Positions 9,063-63,359 of a stretch of 64,000 nucleotides of DNA are shown here, in pieces. The stretch's first letter is position 1. Every line of letters begins with the position of its first letter. Made by a program: the position numbers and the translations under genes. Origin of the DNA: Eledone cirrhosa (lineage: Eukaryota); the NCBI GenBank assembly GCA_964016885.1, contig OZ024749.1, forward strand, positions 53,010,001 to 53,074,000. The letters run 5' to 3'. The notes under the pieces were generated by a model. The model was not told the DNA's origin. It saw only the letters and a list, made by a program, of their open reading frames with translations, and ran no database searches.

Positions 9063-9690
9063 ATGTATCTTGTGCATCAATACACTGCATGCATCTAATG
9101 CACCGACACATTACATGTATCTTGTGCATCAATACACTGCATGCATCTAATGCACCGACACATTACATGTATCTTGTGCATCAATACACTGCATGCATCT
9201 AATGCACCGACACATTACATGTATCTTGTGCATCAATACACTGCATGCATCTAATGCACCGACACATTACATGTATCTTGTGCATCAATACACTGCATGC
9301 ATCTAATGCACCGACACATTACATGTATCTTGTGCATCAATACACTGCATGCATCTAATGCACCGACACATTACATGTATCTTGTGCATCAATACACTGC
9401 ATGCATCTAATGCACCGACACATTACATGTATCTTGTGCATCAATACACTGCATGCATCTAATGCACCGACACATTACATGTATCTTGTGCATCAGTACA
9501 CTGCATGCATTACACTGCACCGGCACATTACATGTATCTTGTGCATCAATACACTGCACCGACACATTACATGTATCTTGTGCATCAATACACTGCATGC
9601 ATTACACTGCACCGACACATTACATGTATCTTGTGCATCAATACACTGCACGCATTACACTGCACCGACACATTACATGTATCTTGTGCA
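9063..9690. repeat. 52-bp minisatellite, about 12 copies
   Basis: Unit atgtatcttgtgcatcaatacactgcatgcatctaatgcaccgacacattac, period 52 (9063->9115). Confidence 0.95.
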
Positions 9691-12615: not shown

Positions 12616-12629
12616 AGTATAAGAATAAA

Positions 12630-12760
12630 GGAACAAAGAATCAGTGTTGCATCATAACATATTTAATAAGATAACATGTTTCACTGTCAATCAGCTCGAG
12701 GAATGATCTGTCATTGATTGAACCCGACTCTGTAATCGAAAGATCGTCAGATATGACTCC
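12630..12760 (-). mobile_element. degenerate copy of the long-stem-II hammerhead element
   Basis: Minus strand: catatCTGACGAtctttcgattacagagtcgggttcaatc...ctcgagctgattgacagtGAAACatgt, homologous to the 53204 and 61034 copies. Stem I is decayed. Confidence 0.6.
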
Positions 12761-12844: not shown

Positions 12845-15225
12845 ACCCCTGAACTAGACTGTGGTAGAGAGGAAGTGAGGGAGATAGAGAGAAAGTATCT
12901 ACCCCAGTACTGGACTGTGGTAGAGAGGAAGTGAGGGAGATAGAGAGGAAGAATCTACCCCAGTACTTGACTGTGGTAGAGAGGAAGTGAGGGAGATAGA
13001 GAGAAAGTATCTACCCCAGTACTGGACTGTGGTAGAGAGGAAGTGAGGGAGATAGAGAGAAAGAATCTACCCCAGTACTGGACTGTGGTAGAGAGGAAGT
13101 GAGGGAGATAGAGAGAAAGTATCTACCCCAGTACTGGACTGTGGTAGAGAGGAAGTGAGGGAGATAGAGAGAAAGAATCTACCCCAGTACTGGACTGTGG
13201 TAGAGAGGAAGTGAGGGAGATAGAGAGAAAGTATCTACCCCTGAACTAGACTGTGGTAGAGAGGAAGTGAGGGAGATAGAGAGAAAGAATCTACCCCAGT
13301 ACTTGACTGTGGTGGAGAGGAAGTGAGGGAGATAGAGAGAAAGTATCTACCCCAGTACTGGACTGTGGTAGAGAGGAAGTGAGGGAGATAGAGAGAAAGA
13401 ATCTACCCCAGTACTGGACTGTGGTAGAGAGGAAGTGAGGGAGATAGAGAGAAAGTATCTACCCCTGAACTAGACTGTGGTAGAGAGGAAGTGAGGGAGA
13501 TAGAGAGAAAGAATCTACCCCAGTACTGGACTGTGGTAGAGAGGAAGTGAGGGAGATAGAGAGAAAGAATCTACCCCAGTACTGGACTGTGGTAGAGAGG
13601 AAGTGAGGGAGATAGAGAGAAAGAATCTACCCCAGTACTGGACTGTGGTAGAGAGGAAGTGAGGGAGATAGAGAGAAAGAATCTACCCCAGTACTGGACT
13701 GTGGTAGAGAGGAAGTGAGGGAGATAGAGAGAAAGAATCTACCCCAGTACTGGACTGTGGTAGAGAGGAAGTGAGGGAGATAGAGAGAAAGTATCTACCC
13801 CAGTACTGGACTGTGGTAGAGAGGAAGTGAGGGAGATAGAGAGAAAGAATCTACCCCAGTACTTGACTGTGGTAGAGAGGAAGTGAGGGAGATAGAGAGA
13901 AAGAATCTACCCCAGTACTGGACTGTGGTAGAGAGGAAGTGAGGGAGATAGAGAGAAAGAATCTACCCCAGTACTTGACTGTGGTGGAGAGGAAGTGAGG
14001 GAGATAGAGAGAAAGAATCTACCCCAGTACTGGACTGTGGTAGAGAGGAAGTGAGGGAGATAGAGAGAAAGTATCTACCCCAGTACTTGACTGTGGTAGA
14101 GAGGAAGTGAGGGAGATAGAGAGAAAGAATCTACCCCAGTACTGGACTGTGGTAGAGAGGAAGTGAGGGAGATAGAGAGAAAGTATCTACCCCAGTACTT
14201 GACTGTGGTAGAGAGGAAGTGAGGGAGATAGAGAGAAAGAATCTACCCCAGTACTGGACTGTGGTAGAGAGGAAGTGAGGGAGATAGAGAGAAAGTATCT
14301 ACCCCAGTACTTGACTGTGGTAGAGAGGAAGTGAGGGAGATAGAGAGAAAGTATCTACCCCAGTACTTGACTGTGGTAGAGAGGAAGTGAGGGAGATAGA
14401 GAGAAAGAATCTACCCCAGTACTGGACTGTGGTAGAGAGGAAGTGAGGGAGATAGAGAGAAAGTATCTACCCCAGTACTTGACTGTGGTAGAGAGGAAGT
14501 GAGGGAGATAGAGAGAAAGAATCTACCCCAGTACTGGACTGTGGTAGAGAGGAAGTGAGGGAGATAGAGAGGAAGAATCTACCCCAGTACTTGACTGTGG
14601 TAGAGAGGAAGTGAGGGAGATAGAGAGAAAGTATCTACCCCAGTACTTGACTGTGGTAGAGAGGAAGTGAGGGAGATAGAGAGAAAGAATCTACCCCAGT
14701 ACTTGACTGTGGTAGAGAGGAAGTGAGGGAGATAGAGAGAAAGAATCTACCCCAGTACTGGACTGTGGTAGAGAGGAAGTGAGGGAGATAGAGAGGAAGA
14801 ATCTACCCCAGTACTTGACTGTGGTAGAGAGGAAGTGAGGGAGATAGAGAGAAAGAATCTACCCCAGTACTGGACTGTGGTAGAGAGGAAGTGAGGGAGA
14901 TAGAGAGGAAGAATCTACCCCAGTACTGGACTGTGGTAGAGAGGAAGTGAGGGAGATAGAGAGAAAGTATCTACCCCAGTACTTGACTGTGGTAGAGAGG
15001 AAGTGAGGGAGATAGAGAGAAAGAATCTACCCCAGTACTGGACTGTGGTAGAGAGGAAGTGAGGGAGATAGAGAGGAAGAATCTACCCCAGTACTTGACT
15101 GTGGTAGAGAGGAAGTGAGGGAGATAGAGAGAAAGTATCTACCCCAGTACTGGACTGTGGTAGAGAGGAAGTGAGGGAGATAGAGAGAAAGAATCTACCC
15201 CAGTACTTGACTGTGGTGGAGAGGA
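12845..15225. repeat. 56-bp minisatellite, about 42 copies, in an Scm intron
   Basis: Unit ctaccccagtact(g/t)gactgtggtagagaggaagtgagggagatagagagaaag(a/t)at, period 56 (12901->12957). Confidence 0.97.
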
Positions 15226-43885: not shown

Positions 43886-44765
43886 GAACTCACAACATTA
43901 AGTTCTAGTTTGAATATGTCACTATCTGTAAAACAACTTTTGTATTTTATCTGATGAGAGCGTACCAAAATTTTGGTACCCTTGAAATATAATAAAATAA
44001 ATATGGTTTTATAAAGATAGTTTCCATTTATTAATATCATTGATATTATACTCCAGAAGAAATATTATTGAGTGCTTCGAATCTGTTATAAACTAAATTG
44101 TTGAATAATCAAATTAAATAACTCATTGCTTATAAAAGTATATATATATATAATCTTCCATTTGTGTATATATATATATAAATAAATATATCTGTATGTG
44201 GTAGTCCTCAATACACAATAGCGTTGTAATTTATTTCACAGTAAAATAATAATCCATGCTTGTTTTAGTTAGAATTTTTTTCTTTTCTCTTCTTTTTGGA
44301 AATTTATATAAAAAAATATTTCAGCTAAATAGTTTCTACCTGTGAATTTTAAGGAAGGGAAACTACTGGTTATCCCCCCCCCCCCCCAGGGGTACCCTTC
44401 ACCAAACAGATTGATGATAAATATCTATCTAGTTGTTTTTTTCCTCATCCCCTTAACGTAGTGTATATAAAGACGGTATTGTGTGATTTGAGGGGAATTT
44501 GGCTGCTATTTCTAACAATTCAAACGACCAACTAGCTGTTCCTTTGTTGTGTTAGGGTTATACTATTATATTATATTGCTTTGAAATTTGATTTAAAACA
44601 AATTTCATAGAAGGGTGGAATGTTTTGCTCTGAGGGTTCCCCCATATTTTGAAGAAAGGATTTTTAAGACCCGAACTATTAGGACGATAAAAACAAAAAA
44701 ACAATAACCCGACAATAATAAATAGCATTGAGTAAATTATTAATTTTAAATATTTTTTATTCCAG

Positions 44766-47877: not shown

Positions 47878-47982
47878 GTTGAACAGTTCTGGTCACTTTA
47901 CAGCCATTTATTGCGACCAACAGATCTGCCAGGACACAGTGACTATCATATATTCAAAGATGGTATTCGACCAATGTGGGAA
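47878..47982 (+). CDS. EIF4E2: eIF4E2 exon
   Basis: ttag|VEQFWSLYSHLLRPTDLPGHSDYHIFKDGIRPMWE|gtaagc. Confidence 0.97.
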
Positions 47983-48039
47983 GTAAGCACGACTGCACTG
48001 TTTTTACTTATATATTCTTTTATTTATTTACTGGATCAA

Positions 48040-48372
48040 TAAATGGGATACAGTGTACCTATTCTAAAAACTGGGATACAGTGTACCTATTCTAAAAATT
48101 AGGATACAGTGTACCTATTTTAAAAACTGGTATACAGTGTACCTATTCTAAAATCTGGGATACGGTGTACCTATTCTAAAAACTACGATATGGTGTACCT
48201 ATTTTAAAAACTGGGATACAGTGTATCTATTTAAAAAAATGGGATACAGTGTACCTACTAAAAACTGGGATAGTGAACCCACTAAAAACTGGTTCAGTGT
48301 ACCTACTAAAAACTGGGGTACAGTATACCTACTAAAAACTGGGGTACAGTGTACCTACTAAAAACTGGGGTA
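48040..48372. repeat. ~26-28-bp tandem repeat
   Basis: Unit aaaaactgggatacagtgtacctattct. Confidence 0.85.
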
Positions 48373-48670
48373 CACAGAGATGTGAGTTATTAAATAATCC
48401 AGATTTCAATATAAGTTAAATTTAAAGAAATTCAATTTTGCATTAAAATAAATGTTAAATTTTGTTTAATATATTTTATATAAAAATATTTTATTTGAAA
48501 TTTTACAAATCAATAAAAATTAATATTTTGCTCAACCAAGCCAGAAACAGTTCTGTATGAGCAAGACATGGTTACCTGATCCGACATGTCTCACAATAGG
48601 ACAACTTGTCTAACCCATGCTAGCATAGAAAATGGACATTAAGCAATGATAAGGATTTTGAATGTATTAA

Positions 48671-48855
48671 CTCTTTAGCATTTAAAGTGGCCATATCTGG
48701 CCAGAATTCTCTTCTTTCTGTTTAAACTGGCTGCTCATACTGATGTTAAGGTATTGTTCTCAAAATAAATGTCAAAATCTCATAGATTCGATATTATGTG
48801 AGGTAAATCCTTTACCACAAAAATACAATAGTAAATATTGAGTAATGCTAAAGGA
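48671..48855 (-). mobile_element. piggyBac-type TTAA MITE, family A (inverted)
   Basis: Reverse complement of the 26001-type element. Confidence 0.75.
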
Positions 48856-48911
48856 TTAAATAAAAATTGTGTTGTAATTTGTAATAATTTTTGGGAGTTT
48901 TTGTTTTCCAG

Positions 48912-49064
48912 GATTCCGCCAATAAAGATGGAGGTAAATGGATAATTCGGTTAAGGAAAGGATTAGCGGCTCGTTGCTGGGAAAACTTGATACTAGCCAT
49001 GTTAGGAGAGCAATTTATGGTTGGTGAAGAGATTTGTGGTGCTGTCTTATCTATGAGATATCAG
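48912..49064 (+). CDS. EIF4E2: eIF4E2 exon
   Basis: ccag|DSANKDGGKWIIRLRKGLAARCWENLILAMLGEQFMVGEEICGAVLSMRYQ|gtatgt. Confidence 0.98.
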
Positions 49065-49352
49065 GTATGTAAAGCTTTCTATATCAATATTGATCAGATA
49101 TCTATAATATTGAATTGATCAAATATCAACAATTTTGCAGAATTCTTTTTTTTTTTTTTGTAAATTTATGGTTAATGTATTGTATACTAGTACGTAGTGT
49201 CTTGTACACAAGAACTGAGTACATAGTGTCTTGTACACAAGAACTGAATACAGTCTTGTACACAAGAACTGACTACATAGTGTCTTGTTCATGTGGTTTG
49301 TTATTGAAAGGGTTAAAATATAACAAATAATAGTTTATTTTAACTAACTTGC

Positions 49353-50105
49353 ACATACACACATTCCCCTCTCTCTCACCTCACATAGACATACACACAT
49401 TCCCCTCTCTCTCACCTCACATAGACATACACACATTCCCCTCTCTCACCTCACAGACATACACACATTCCCCTCTCTCTCACCTCACATAGACATACAC
49501 ACATTCCCCCCTCTCTCACCTCACAGACATGCACACATTCCCCTCTTTCTCACCTCACATAGACATACACACATTTCCCTCTCTCTCACCTCACATAGAC
49601 ATACACACATTCCCCTCTCTCTCACCTCACATAGACATACACACATACCTCTCTCTCTCTTTCACATTCCTCTCTCCCTACCTCCCTCTCGCACACAAGT
49701 ACCTCTCCCTCCCTCCTTCCTCTCTCACTCACACAAACATACTTTTTTCACTCTCTCTGTCTCCTAAAAATAAACTACAATCACTACAGAACATACAGTT
49801 CTCTCCCTTCCTCTCACTCACATATCTCTATCCCCCCCTCTCTCTCTCTCTCTCTCTCCTATATAGTTGTAATTCTTCCTCTCTCTCTCCTATACAGTTG
49901 TAATTCTTCCTCTCCCCCCCTTCCTCCCCTATACAGTTGTAATTCTTCCTCTCTCTCTCTCCTATACAGTTGTAATTCTCCCCCCCTTCCTCCCCTCTCT
50001 CTCCTATACAGTTGTAATTCTTCCTCTCTCTCTCTCCTATACAGTTGTAATTCTTCCCCCCCCCCCCTTCCTCCCCCTTCTCTCTCCTATACAGTTGTAA
50101 TTCTT
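49353..50105. repeat. pyrimidine-rich tandem repeats (36-bp unit, then cctatacagttgtaattcttcc units)
   Basis: Direct inspection. Confidence 0.85.
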
Positions 50106-50130
50106 CTTTATATTTCTGTTATATTTTCAG

Positions 50131-50264
50131 GAAGATATTCTGTCCCTCTGGAACCGAACAGCCAATGATTCAATAACATCCCGTATCCGAGATACATTGA
50201 AACGTGTTCTAAACTTACCTCCAAATACTATAATAGAGTATAAGATGCATGTTGACAGTATAAA
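50131..50264 (+). CDS. EIF4E2: eIF4E2 exon
   Basis: ttcag|EDILSLWNRTANDSITSRIRDTLKRVLNLPPNTIIEYKMHVDSI AA|gttagt. Confidence 0.97.
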
Positions 50265-50478
50265 GTTAGTTCCTGAAGGCCTTAGACTTCTACTGAAATA
50301 GTTTTATTTTCATTTTATTATTTAAATTCAGTGTATGTTTGTATTTTCTTTTTATTCTTCGTCCACCATATCGCTGCCTCCTACGTCTTTCTGTTTTTGT
50401 AATATATTAGTCGTTTTTTTTTTTTTCTATTAGTAAGGGATCCTTTTCTTGTATTTAGGTTACTTCAGAGATTTTCAG

Positions 50479-50521: not shown

Positions 50522-50714
50522 GGAAAAAGTATGACCCCGACGCAGAGCTCAAGCCGTTTCAACGGCTATTTCTGGACGTCCAGAAATAGCCGTCGAAACG
50601 GCTTGAGCTCTGCCGTCGGGGTCATACTTTTTCCTATTTCCCACTCTACTACCCTAAGTATTGAGTACTCTGGTGCGTTATGGTCCATTTGGTTCTTTAC
50701 CACATTTCCTTTGT

Positions 50715-50715
<1 letters not shown>
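50519..50715. mobile_element. fold-back element with a hammerhead 3' half (family H2)
   Basis: ~59-bp-arm palindrome centred at GGAC|GTCC (50577/8). The right arm has GAAAC-GGC..GCC-GTC. The tail ccactctactaccctaagtattgagtactctggtgcgttatggtcc is shared with 61250-61300. Flanked by (TA)n. Confidence 0.7.
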
Positions 50716-53067: not shown

Positions 53068-53203
53068 TATATATATATCTGGTGTGGGATGCTTAAAGTG
53101 TCCGTATGCAGTAGGGCGTTTGAGCACTCGATGCTCTTACAGAGCAGAGTATAATATCACATAAGAAACGGAGAATCAGTGGTGCGATGAATTAAAATTT
53201 ATT

Positions 53204-53300
53204 AGACATATTACAATCGTTTCTCTGGCAACCAGCTCGAGGTTGGATCGATGCGAGGATTGAACCTGACTCTGAAATCGCAAGATCCTCAGATATGTCT
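53204..53300 (-). ncRNA. type I hammerhead ribozyme motif (family H1) inside inverted element 53154-53418
   Basis: Minus strand AGACATAT-CTGAGGA-[tcttgcga...ttgccaga]-GAAAC-GATT-GTA-ATATGTCT: 8-bp stem I, CUGANGA, GAAA, GUA triplet. Confidence 0.75.
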
Positions 53301-53411
53301 TAATCTTTTGAAGCAGAGTTTCCAAATTTGGAAACTCTGGTTGCCAGAGAAACGATTGTAATATGTCTAATAAATTTTAATTTGTCGCACCACTGATTCT
53401 CCGTTTCTTAT

Positions 53412-53453
<42 letters not shown>

Positions 53454-60633: not shown

Positions 60634-60698
60634 ATGGCGGCAATTAGCACGAAACAAAAGCTTCTAACTCTTATAGATGATATTGAAATAGTATCAAA
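60634..60698 (+). CDS. MED4: Mediator subunit 4, exon 1
   Basis: aaaacATGGCGGCA: MAAISTKQKLLTLIDDIEIVS AA|gtacgt, matching the MED4 N-terminal helix. A YY1-like ATGGCGGC overlaps the start. Confidence 0.9.
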
Positions 60699-61033
60699 GT
60701 ACGTATTTTTTTAAATTTCATACTCAAGAATAATTTCTTGTTTAGCTTTGTGTAAAATCATGTTTTTTTTTCATTTTCTAATTTTTCCTTTACTTTAAAG
60801 AGCGTTAAAGCCTGTCTCTGAATTAAACAACAACAATAATATGTATATATGTGTTATTGAAAACATTTCCATGAAATCCCTTTCCTAATCCCTATTCCGC
60901 TTTAAATCCTAAATCTCCTAATTAGACAATGAACCTTTATAATGTTTTCGTTTTAAAATGTGATATATAGAACTGAATATATATATATATATATATATAT
61001 AAGTGATTTTGGAAACTCTGCTTCGTAGAATCG

Positions 61034-61130
61034 AGACATATCTGACGATCTTGCGATTTCAGAGTCAGGTTTGATCATTGCATCGATCGTGCCTCGAGCT
61101 GGTCGCCAGAGAAACGATTGTAATATGTCT
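61034..61130 (+). ncRNA. type I hammerhead ribozyme motif (family H1), sense in MED4 intron 1
   Basis: AGACATAT-CTGACGA(61042-48)-[TCTTGCGA...TCGCCAGA]-GAAAC-GATT-GTA(61122)-ATATGTCT. Confidence 0.78.
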
Positions 61131-61185
61131 AATAAATCTTATTCGTCGCACCACTGATTCTCTGTTTCTTATGTGATATATATAT

Positions 61186-61325
61186 ATAGGAAAAGAGTCA
61201 GGACCCCGACGGCTGAGCTCCGGCCGTGTCCTGACTCTTTTCCTATTACCCACTCTACTACCCTAAGTATTGAGTACTCTGGTGCGTTATGGTCCACCTG
61301 GTATCTTACCACACCTTTGTTATAT
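61186..61325. mobile_element. family H2 fold-back element (shorter palindrome)
   Basis: ataggaaaagagtcaggac...gtcctgactcttttcctat plus the same tail as 50640-50700. Confidence 0.7.
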
Positions 61326-62138: not shown

Positions 62139-62260
62139 GGAGTTGTTTGATGTAATGAGCACCCCCAAGAACCAACAAAAGACAGATGCACCAGATCCTG
62201 CCCTTTTGATGGAATTACTTGTTCAGAAAGATAAAGAAATGAAAGAATCATTAAAGCTTG
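62139..62260 (+). CDS. MED4: MED4 exon 2
   Basis: ctaag|G ELFDVMSTPKNQQKTDAPDPALLMELLVQKDKEMKESLKL G|gtgagt. Confidence 0.9.
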
Positions 62261-62562: not shown

Positions 62563-62691
62563 TAAATGTGTTAATGGTGGCGCTAGTGGTGATAATGGCA
62601 GTGGCTGTTATTGTGTTTTTTTTTCTTTTAATTCTGTTATTAAATTCCATTGTCAGTTTCTAAGGGTAAAACATTATTGTTGTTGTTTCAG

Positions 62692-62807
62692 CTGAAGAAC
62701 AGATGGACATTCAGAAGACGATGGATGAGTTGAAACTGGAAGTTGAGAAACGAGACACGGATATAAGGAATTTACAGAAGAACTTTAAAGAAGCTGAAAC
62801 TATTTTA
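62692..62807 (+). CDS. MED4: MED4 exon 3
   Basis: ttcag|AEEQMDIQKTMDELKLEVEKRDTDIRNLQKNFKEAETIL|gtaagg, with EVEKRD..I..LQK..KEAE conserved. Confidence 0.96.
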
Positions 62808-62914
62808 GTAAGGATACCATCATCATCAGCATCATTATTGTTTTAATGTCCACTGTCCCTGCTAGAAAGGGTTGGATGGGTCTATATAGACTGTGTCAGC
62901 ACTGAAGCATATTC

Positions 62915-63214: not shown

Positions 63215-63359
63215 GCAACTGCAATCTACCAAGCCAAGCAGAAACTAAACTCTATAGCTCAAGCTAATAAAAAGACGATATCATCGGAAGAACTTATCAA
63301 ATTTGCTCACAGAATCAGCGCCAGTAATGCTATAGCAGCACCAGTTACATGGGCACCAG
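63215..63359 (+). CDS. MED4: MED4 exon 4 (gene continues beyond the window)
   Basis: ccag|[49 protein letters not shown]|gtattt. Confidence 0.97.

Follow-up and report, generated by a model that had tools for sequence, protein, structure and literature searches.

A hammerhead-like element in a MED4 intron of Eledone cirrhosa reads as the terminus of a Hydra-clade Penelope-like element with a long helix II

The question raised by this locus is what an element of about 175 bp with the letters of a hammerhead ribozyme is doing in the first intron of MED4 in Eledone cirrhosa, whether it is a retroelement in its own right or part of a larger one, and whether it is likely to cut the RNA of its host gene. 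By the window we mean the whole stretch of 64,000 nucleotides that was analysed (contig OZ024749.1, positions 53,010,001 to 53,074,000). Judged from its sequence, the element is the ~175-nt terminus (pLTR/5'UTR) of a protein-coding Penelope-like element (PLE) of ~4.8 kb and not a stand-alone retrozyme. The gene setting given in the initial annotation was confirmed: Pfam Med4 matches were found on the forward strand at 62685-62828 and 63218-63358, and with two phase-compatible upstream exons they place the element in sense orientation in intron 1. These two exons (Table 1), which have no Pfam match, we take to be MED4 exons 1 and 2 from their similarity to MED4 and compatible splice phase. Similarly, two MBT exons of Scm on the reverse strand were identified by Pfam and SLED-like and SAM-like Scm exons were recognised by eye on either side of 12.7 kb, and the related copy there is indeed in sense orientation in an Scm intron. 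Between Scm and MED4 are the exons of an eIF4E-family gene (Pfam IF4E, 47878-50298, +), with a further copy downstream of it at 53 kb. The window also holds a LINE fragment, seen as a 684-aa open frame with an endonuclease and the start of an RT (176-2227, +), and minisatellite arrays with 52-bp and ~60-bp units in the Scm introns (9098-9601 and 12860-15200).

When the window copy was read directly, the letters of a type I hammerhead, CUGANGA, GAAA and NUH around three helices, were present and the anatomy was as first described, with stem I, CUGACGA, a 62-nt helix II, GAAA, a palindromic stem III and GUA. All eight pairs of stem I are formed, the closing helix of helix II has 7 of 8 pairs with one U-C mismatch, and the stem III segment, ACGAUUGU, is a self-complementary palindrome. 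The location of the element also stands, but not its 5' edge, since the family homology begins at 61008 and not at 61002. Folding energy did not set the sequence apart, because the hammerhead alone folded no better than chance allows (z -1.69; 13 of 200 shuffles did as well) and so did the full 177-nt element (z +0.28). A search with the Rfam models missed the element: there was no hammerhead among the best 150 of 167 Rfam matches over the whole window, nor on 61000-61180 at E up to 10. Support for the hammerhead comes from its copy number, with control patterns giving 0, and from covariation, not from folding energy. In the window copy N7 is C, a near-private letter (C in 2 and G in 87 of 98 family-A copies), and it is predicted that the core can therefore pair with stem III; the core-open fold lies 2.4-3.1 kcal/mol above the predicted minimum, and the core is thus predicted to misfold against stem III. 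At 60958-60969, 40 bp upstream of the 5' end of the element, 12 nt match its 3' end; this is no target-site duplication. Directly 3' of the element, in (TA)n, there is another fold-back repeat (61186-61325; also at about 50522-50715), whose inverted arms hold the 9-mer of the helix II block and which recurs in L011, L026 and L211.

Table 1. Coordinates of the element, its parts, its relatives and the flanking exons in the window
Feature	Position	Strand	Basis or remark
MED4 exon 1, coding part (putative)	60634..60698	+	splice phase and similarity to MED4
MED4 exon 2 (putative)	62139..62260	+	splice phase and similarity to MED4
Short solo PLE terminus copy	61008..61178	+	+2 to +172 from the putative start site; MED4 intron 1, (TA)n on both sides
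Stem I 5' strand, also DPE-like motif (+28 to +35)	61034..61041	+	sequence; spacing common to families A and C/E
Hammerhead core CUGANGA, N7 = C in the window copy	61042..61048	+	sequence read directly
Helix II, 62 nt: basal helix, near-invariant block (61060-61070 with 61092-61101), apical GAUC/GAUC hairpin	61049..61110	+	
GAAA (61111-61114), palindromic stem III, GUA	61111..61122	+	predicted cut after 61122
Stem I 3' strand	61123..61130	+	read directly
Second family-A copy, +2 to ~+251, with ~75-bp tail	53079..53326	-	BLAST, sequence
Inverted, 5'-truncated partner arm of the 53-kb insertion	53337..53427	+	BLAST within the window
Sister family D copy: core intact, stem III and stem I 3' strand damaged	12628..12759	-	BLAST, tree; Scm intron, sense

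Both homologues named in the initial annotation were recovered by BLAST within the window, at 53326-53150 with 88.8% identity and at 12759-12628 with 74.6%. The copy at 53 kb does lie in (TA)n, but what the (TA)n adjoins is its ~75-bp tail, which runs to ~53079, and an inverted arm (53337-53427) that is absent from the first description and was found by BLAST. The copy at 12.7 kb is a homologue and is sense in its Scm intron, but the tree makes it a member of a sister family. A minimal hammerhead with a short helix II, which belongs to a different AT-rich family with relatives in L058, L068 and L073, was also observed at 43943-43995 (+).

A genome search gave 2,216 first-look candidates, of which 40 were scored, and the full-length ones were 95-99% identical to the window copy. 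They are flanked by (TA)n and inverted partners and have an optional ~75-bp tail, a pattern that has been described for PLEs (PMC8557442). Among the best matches, at 29 distinct loci, there are four, each ~97% identical, that run on upstream into the 3'UTR. In an upstream walk over 20 loci the hammerhead was found downstream in 15, the C-terminus of a sense GIY-YIG endonuclease upstream in 10, and both in 7. Among 20 loci chosen instead by their endonuclease region, the hammerhead was 3' of the endonuclease in 17, and 14 carried RT, endonuclease and hammerhead. The suspected linkage to Penelope RT/GIY-YIG ORFs is therefore real, and the earlier view of a type I hammerhead of the PLE kind, dimer-type with a palindromic stem III, in a retroelement family is borne out. 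The description of that family as non-autonomous is not supported, in view of these 14 loci and of the lack of head-to-tail arrays among 173 motif-bearing loci. The order of the unit is terminus, ~75-bp tail, ATG (~+295), RT/GIY-YIG ORF, ~1.75-kb 3'UTR and again terminus. This is seen in L114, which measures 4,801 bp from hammerhead to hammerhead and reads as (TA)n, a terminus from about -6, tail, ATG near +295, ORF, 3'UTR and terminus; L112 likewise has a hammerhead at both ends. Every family-A ORF examined was broken, and the family may therefore no longer be autonomous. In L034 an endonuclease ORF precedes the element, but none of 20 copies of this ORF continues into the 3' end of the family of the window copy; it was ruled out as the element's own and assigned to sister family B.

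The motifs point to the Hydra clade, whose defining motifs are given in PMC8557442, the published references having been compared by eye. We found RWR (RWK-like), DKT, a CxCx5C linker, no CCHH, and CxxC and CxH around a conserved E and N; MRWR was read from the DNA of L099, L106 and L112, and SDKT in L108 and L112. The flanks of the copies show the (TA)n insertion preference, and direct or inverted pLTRs, 5' truncation and an optional tail were found as in other PLEs. At 4,801 bp in L114 and 4,514 bp in family B the element is longer than the usual Hydra element (<3 kb), which is a typical and not a diagnostic trait. The nearest intact proteins are 48-55% identical with the same motifs, one of them, at 48%, from the octopod Argonauta hians. 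Pfam assigned no family to the RT and endonuclease pieces, and a protein search with the family-B endonuclease piece found no longer relatives. Family B (L055, L061, L063, L067, L070) is itself a sister Hydra family with a 4,514-bp unit, a 3-bp stem I, the strongest stem III palindrome and the cores CUGACGA, CCGACGA and CCGUCGA. Further unrelated Hydra-like RT/endonuclease pieces lie near insertions in L066, L067, L074, L101 and L103, and Hydra PLEs are therefore diverse in this genome.

If the element is a terminus, how do copies of only 175 or 250 bp arise? Ends were mapped in a sample picked by the 3' 24-mer (the first 30 of 656 matches, at 28 distinct loci when each of the overlapping pairs L138/139 and L143/144 is taken as a single locus). 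Among these 28 loci, 15 reach -10 to +5, 6 extend further upstream and 7 stop short, and an inverted partner is present at 17. The 3' ends of the arms fall at +173 to +178 in 21 of 30 and at +243 to +251 in 6 of 30, and none of the arms in this sample begins 3 nt or less from the cut site at +117. In a second sample across families 13 of 23 loci reach -2 to +10. In families A and C/E the 5' boundary is a CA dinucleotide, 27 nt before the DPE-like motif, with different sequences upstream of it; the DPE RGACGTGY is matched at all 8 letters in family E and at 6 of them in the window copy, and family B shows no clean fit to this spacing. Inr and DPE elements have characteristic positions relative to the start site, and it is by these position rules that we read the promoter. 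The common 5' site with a DPE-like motif at +28 is, on these letters, likely to be a transcription start; the Penelope DPE consensus has been reported in PMC2377424. It has been shown in vitro for a Poseidon PLE that RT initiates internally at two sites flanking the tail, and that cleavage is protein-assisted and insertion independent of cleavage (PMC11167929). Given the fixed ends and this internal initiation, run-off cDNA synthesis on the 5'UTR is the best account of the solo copies. Simple run-off does not account for everything: of 14 family-A copies that contain an ORF start, a single one begins at +1 and 5 extend well upstream of it, so that template jumping, a circular template or read-through is needed in addition.

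The short copies could instead be a self-propagating non-autonomous derivative, SINE- or retrozyme-like, that retains the internal promoter, is itself transcribed and is mobilised in trans. Their 5' boundary is sharp, they far outnumber ORF starts (2,216 against 123 first-look candidates), the closest are 95-99% identical to the window copy whereas the ORF-linked ones are 80-95% identical to a young copy, and retrozymes do derive from PLE pLTRs (bioRxiv 10.64898/2026.07.22.740005). We nevertheless regard this as quite unlikely. The tandem copies that had been proposed as a check were not found, with no head-to-tail unit array among the 173 loci with the motif, where neighbours on one strand occur only 4,514 bp and 665 bp apart; the four loci that continue into the 3'UTR speak against it, and run-off of the 5'UTR accounts for the boundary without a separate family.

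The feature that distinguishes this hammerhead is its helix II, which is 57-63 nt long across lineages. The gapped motif of helix II had 3,740 exact matches genome-wide (control 0) and the motif with the long helix II had 7,145 (controls 0), these counts taking inverted arms twice and the search patterns themselves enforcing the helix II block. Covariation was examined in 13 lineage representatives, which are related to each other, with the structure drawn from one of them: 88.6% of 369 cells were paired compared to 81.0% when shuffled (0 of 500 as high) and 26-42% when the structure was slid. The stem covariation foreseen earlier is present in the number of cells with double changes (29 against 13.1 in shuffles, 0 of 500), but the number of pairs with such changes is within the shuffles (9 against 7.3, 91 of 500). 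RNAalifold recovered helix II from the representatives and missed stems I and III. Stem III is 98% paired and is a palindrome in five different sequences, with predicted duplex energies of -5.8 to -13.3 kcal/mol, which fits the dimer model of PMC4209133. Between families with different stems the middle block of helix II hardly changes, and it may therefore have a sequence-specific role; as it scarcely varies, it contributes little covariation. Within 98 family-A copies, a sample biased toward close copies, the core was kept no better than the block (31 of 1,175 non-CpG letters differing, 15 of them U4C, against 18 of 1,073), as expected of decay after insertion. By eye, loop 2 of family C could pair with sequence further downstream, but this pairing was dropped because families A and E do not retain it.

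One reason why helix II is so long could be that a 5'UTR intron has its donor concealed there, as G|GT within the invariant block, with an acceptor in the tail, so that splicing would remove the 3' half of the ribozyme from the mRNA. The 5'UTR introns of PLEs do overlap the promoter (PMC2377424), and family B has a strong donor-like G|GTAAGA and an acceptor-like CTGTCTAG. Family A, however, has only a weak donor and E3 an altered one, and no precisely spliced genomic copy was found, the single match being a short-homology deletion; this absence is weak evidence because PLEs retain introns in DNA. We consider a hidden intron improbable.

Variant cores have also been amplified. In the 7,145 matches, searched as C-Y-G-N-N-G-A, U4 is kept in 55% and CCG is found in 45%; position 4 is C in 3,196 of them and position 6 is U in 1,232, and among the matches listed, U6 occurs almost only on C4 (96 of 100, counted by hand). 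Family-A cores are canonical in 72 of 98 and U4C in 12 of 98. A variant tree was made from 80 of 142 copies with positions 4 and 6 masked, and a quick tree was used for the AU tests. CCGUCGA occurs in families B and E3, which are split by 99% branches and canonical lineages, and a single clade was rejected both for C4U6 (p-AU 7.5e-7) and for all C4 (p-AU 1.1e-5). The C4U6 copies keep a fully self-complementary stem III in 26 of 31 and a stem I of at least 3 bp in 27 of 31, and CCGUCGA lineages are ORF-linked. Median pairwise identity is 95.3% in the E3 C4U6 set, 91.4% in A1 and 93.8% in A2, and E3 is thus at least as young as the canonical sets compared. The direction of change would be from CUGA to the variants, given the universal CUGA consensus and the published Hydra table. 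U4C lowers hammerhead activity but need not abolish it and is tolerated in a viroid (PMC3088659), and A6C strongly lowers Mg2+ cleavage in a metal-dependent manner (PMC7151607); no data on the activity of A6U were found in the literature. The variant cores, in lineages of over a thousand copies, are predicted to be crippled, hinting that the fold may serve another job.

It may be argued that the hammerhead is nonetheless active and required for transposition, U4C and A6U being tolerated through tertiary contacts of the long helix II, a protein or another metal; as to the identity of the element this overlaps with the reading that we prefer. The 55% of matches that keep U4 would fit, as would the GAAA, GUH triplet and palindrome that are retained even in variant lineages, the infectivity of viroids with U4C (PMC3088659) and the cleavage of A6C with Mn2+ (PMC7151607). 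We think this rather unlikely, since the near confinement of A6U to C4 is the order expected of stepwise decay, stem I is down to 3-4 bp in families B and E, and in another PLE insertion in vitro was unaffected by cleavage mutants (PMC11167929). That U4C and U4C+A6U lineages were amplified while keeping their helices and palindrome is why cleavage is likely to be optional and the fold to have a second role. We accordingly prefer, as the probable reading, a truncated Hydra PLE terminus whose cleavage would depend on a dimer or a protein and be dispensable, and whose scaffold is kept for a second role. A bolder version, which we advance only tentatively, is that the hammerhead has turned into a non-catalytic RNA or promoter scaffold, with its long helix II, a stem I that doubles as the DPE, independent CUGA to CCGA to CCGU changes and fold and palindrome kept, and that PLE hammerheads are kept for structure. 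If that were true, the family would be a natural experiment in which PLE hammerheads are retained for structure and not for cleavage. As canonical, U4C and U4C+A6U cores sit on one scaffold, each amplified, the need for cleavage is directly testable.

A probable sequence of events on the preferred reading, that of a truncated terminus with dispensable cleavage, is that an internal Inr/DPE-type promoter would start the element RNA at +1 and the element RT, primed at nicked (TA)n DNA, would begin synthesis within the RNA, at +177 or +251. When it begins in the 5' terminal repeat, it would run off at +1 and give 175/250-bp solo copies and inverted pairs; when it begins in the 3' repeat, the copies would be longer and truncated to varying extents. 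Through the palindrome of stem III the two hammerheads of a full transcript may pair, and they could cut out an RNA of unit length. This excision is likely to be optional, and a second, non-catalytic role is likely for the fold and especially for the invariant block of helix II, for which docking of a protein on the RNA or a promoter element in DNA are candidates. Short solo copies may thus map the transcription start of the element.

What then does the copy in MED4 do? That it cuts or regulates MED4 pre-mRNA is very improbable, even though it is in sense orientation 310 bp into intron 1 with canonical core letters and an 8-bp stem I. No partner sense hammerhead is present in the part of MED4 inside the window, its core-open fold is predicted to be the unfavourable one, single minimal hammerheads failed to cleave in vitro (PMC4209133), and with thousands of genome copies a chance intronic insertion is expected. 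Because cleavage is predicted only as a dimer or with protein help, the lone copy likely leaves MED4 pre-mRNA uncut, and most likely it is an ordinary neutral insertion. The suggestion that it could cleave host pre-mRNA or make small circles is therefore not upheld for a single copy with a predicted core misfold and no partner in the window.

The association of PLEs with hammerheads is already known, and their function there has been stated to be unclear (PMC8557442). Such elements have been described in octopus, as Hydra-1_Obim of Octopus bimaculoides, with a 22-nt helix II, is listed in Files S1/S2 of PMC8557442, and the idea of a family undescribed in cephalopods has to be given up to that extent. 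The giant squid genome has 235 Rfam hammerheads (PMC6962438), and in the text examined of an Octopus vulgaris repeat annotation (PMC13282606) PLEs are mentioned and the words hammerhead and ribozyme are absent. A literature search by title and start of abstract, with Repbase, Dfam and the supplements of PMC4209133 and the retrozyme preprint outside its scope, found no PLE hammerhead with a long helix II or decayed core in octopus. Rfam overlooks thousands of hammerhead-like motifs whose helix II is ~60 nt long. What is new here is the 57-63-nt helix II with its near-invariant block, the shared 5' start site and the amplified U4C/A6U core lineages.

Compared to published Hydra PLEs, Hydra-1_Obim included (PMC8557442), the family here has the same C-terminal GIY-YIG, RWK-like, DKT and CxCX5C motifs, CxxC and CxH, no CCHH, (TA)n targets and, close to the 3' end, a hammerhead in which CUGANGA is followed by an extra base and stem III is palindromic. 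It differs in its unit of ~4.8 kb where Hydra PLEs are generally <3 kb, in a helix II of 57-63 nt compared to 9-24 nt in the Hydra rows of File S2 (counted by hand; two non-Hydra PLE-X rows are longer), and in that 45% of its matches have CCG whereas the Hydra cores listed there are all CUGA. Like the PLE minimal hammerheads of PMC4209133 it is type I, lies in pLTRs, has a weak palindromic helix III of the dimer type and occurs mostly as dispersed single or inverted copies; those have a helix II of 7-8 bp and a helix I of 4-5 bp, whereas here helix II is ~20 bp long and interrupted, its internal block is invariant, and stem I reaches 8 bp. Non-LTR retrozymes are likewise short, non-coding, type I and PLE-derived, but they are defined by tandem units (bioRxiv 10.64898/2026.07.22.740005), none of which was found for this family at 173 loci. 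A retrozyme-like array of another family does occur at L067:7999-9901, with a 466-bp unit, at least 4.1 copies that are 99% identical and a short-helix hammerhead in each. Poseidon PAc of Anolis (PMC11167929) shares two RT start sites that bound the tail at the pLTR-ORF junction and AT-rich targets, with no trace of cut-site ends, but it is of a different clade, with its start sites inside the ORF and its hammerhead overlapping the start codon, whereas here both sites are in the 5'UTR. Finally, Penelope of Drosophila virilis has an internal TATA-less promoter in its pLTR (PMC2377424), as we read here, with the difference that the putative DPE of this family is itself the 5' strand of stem I.
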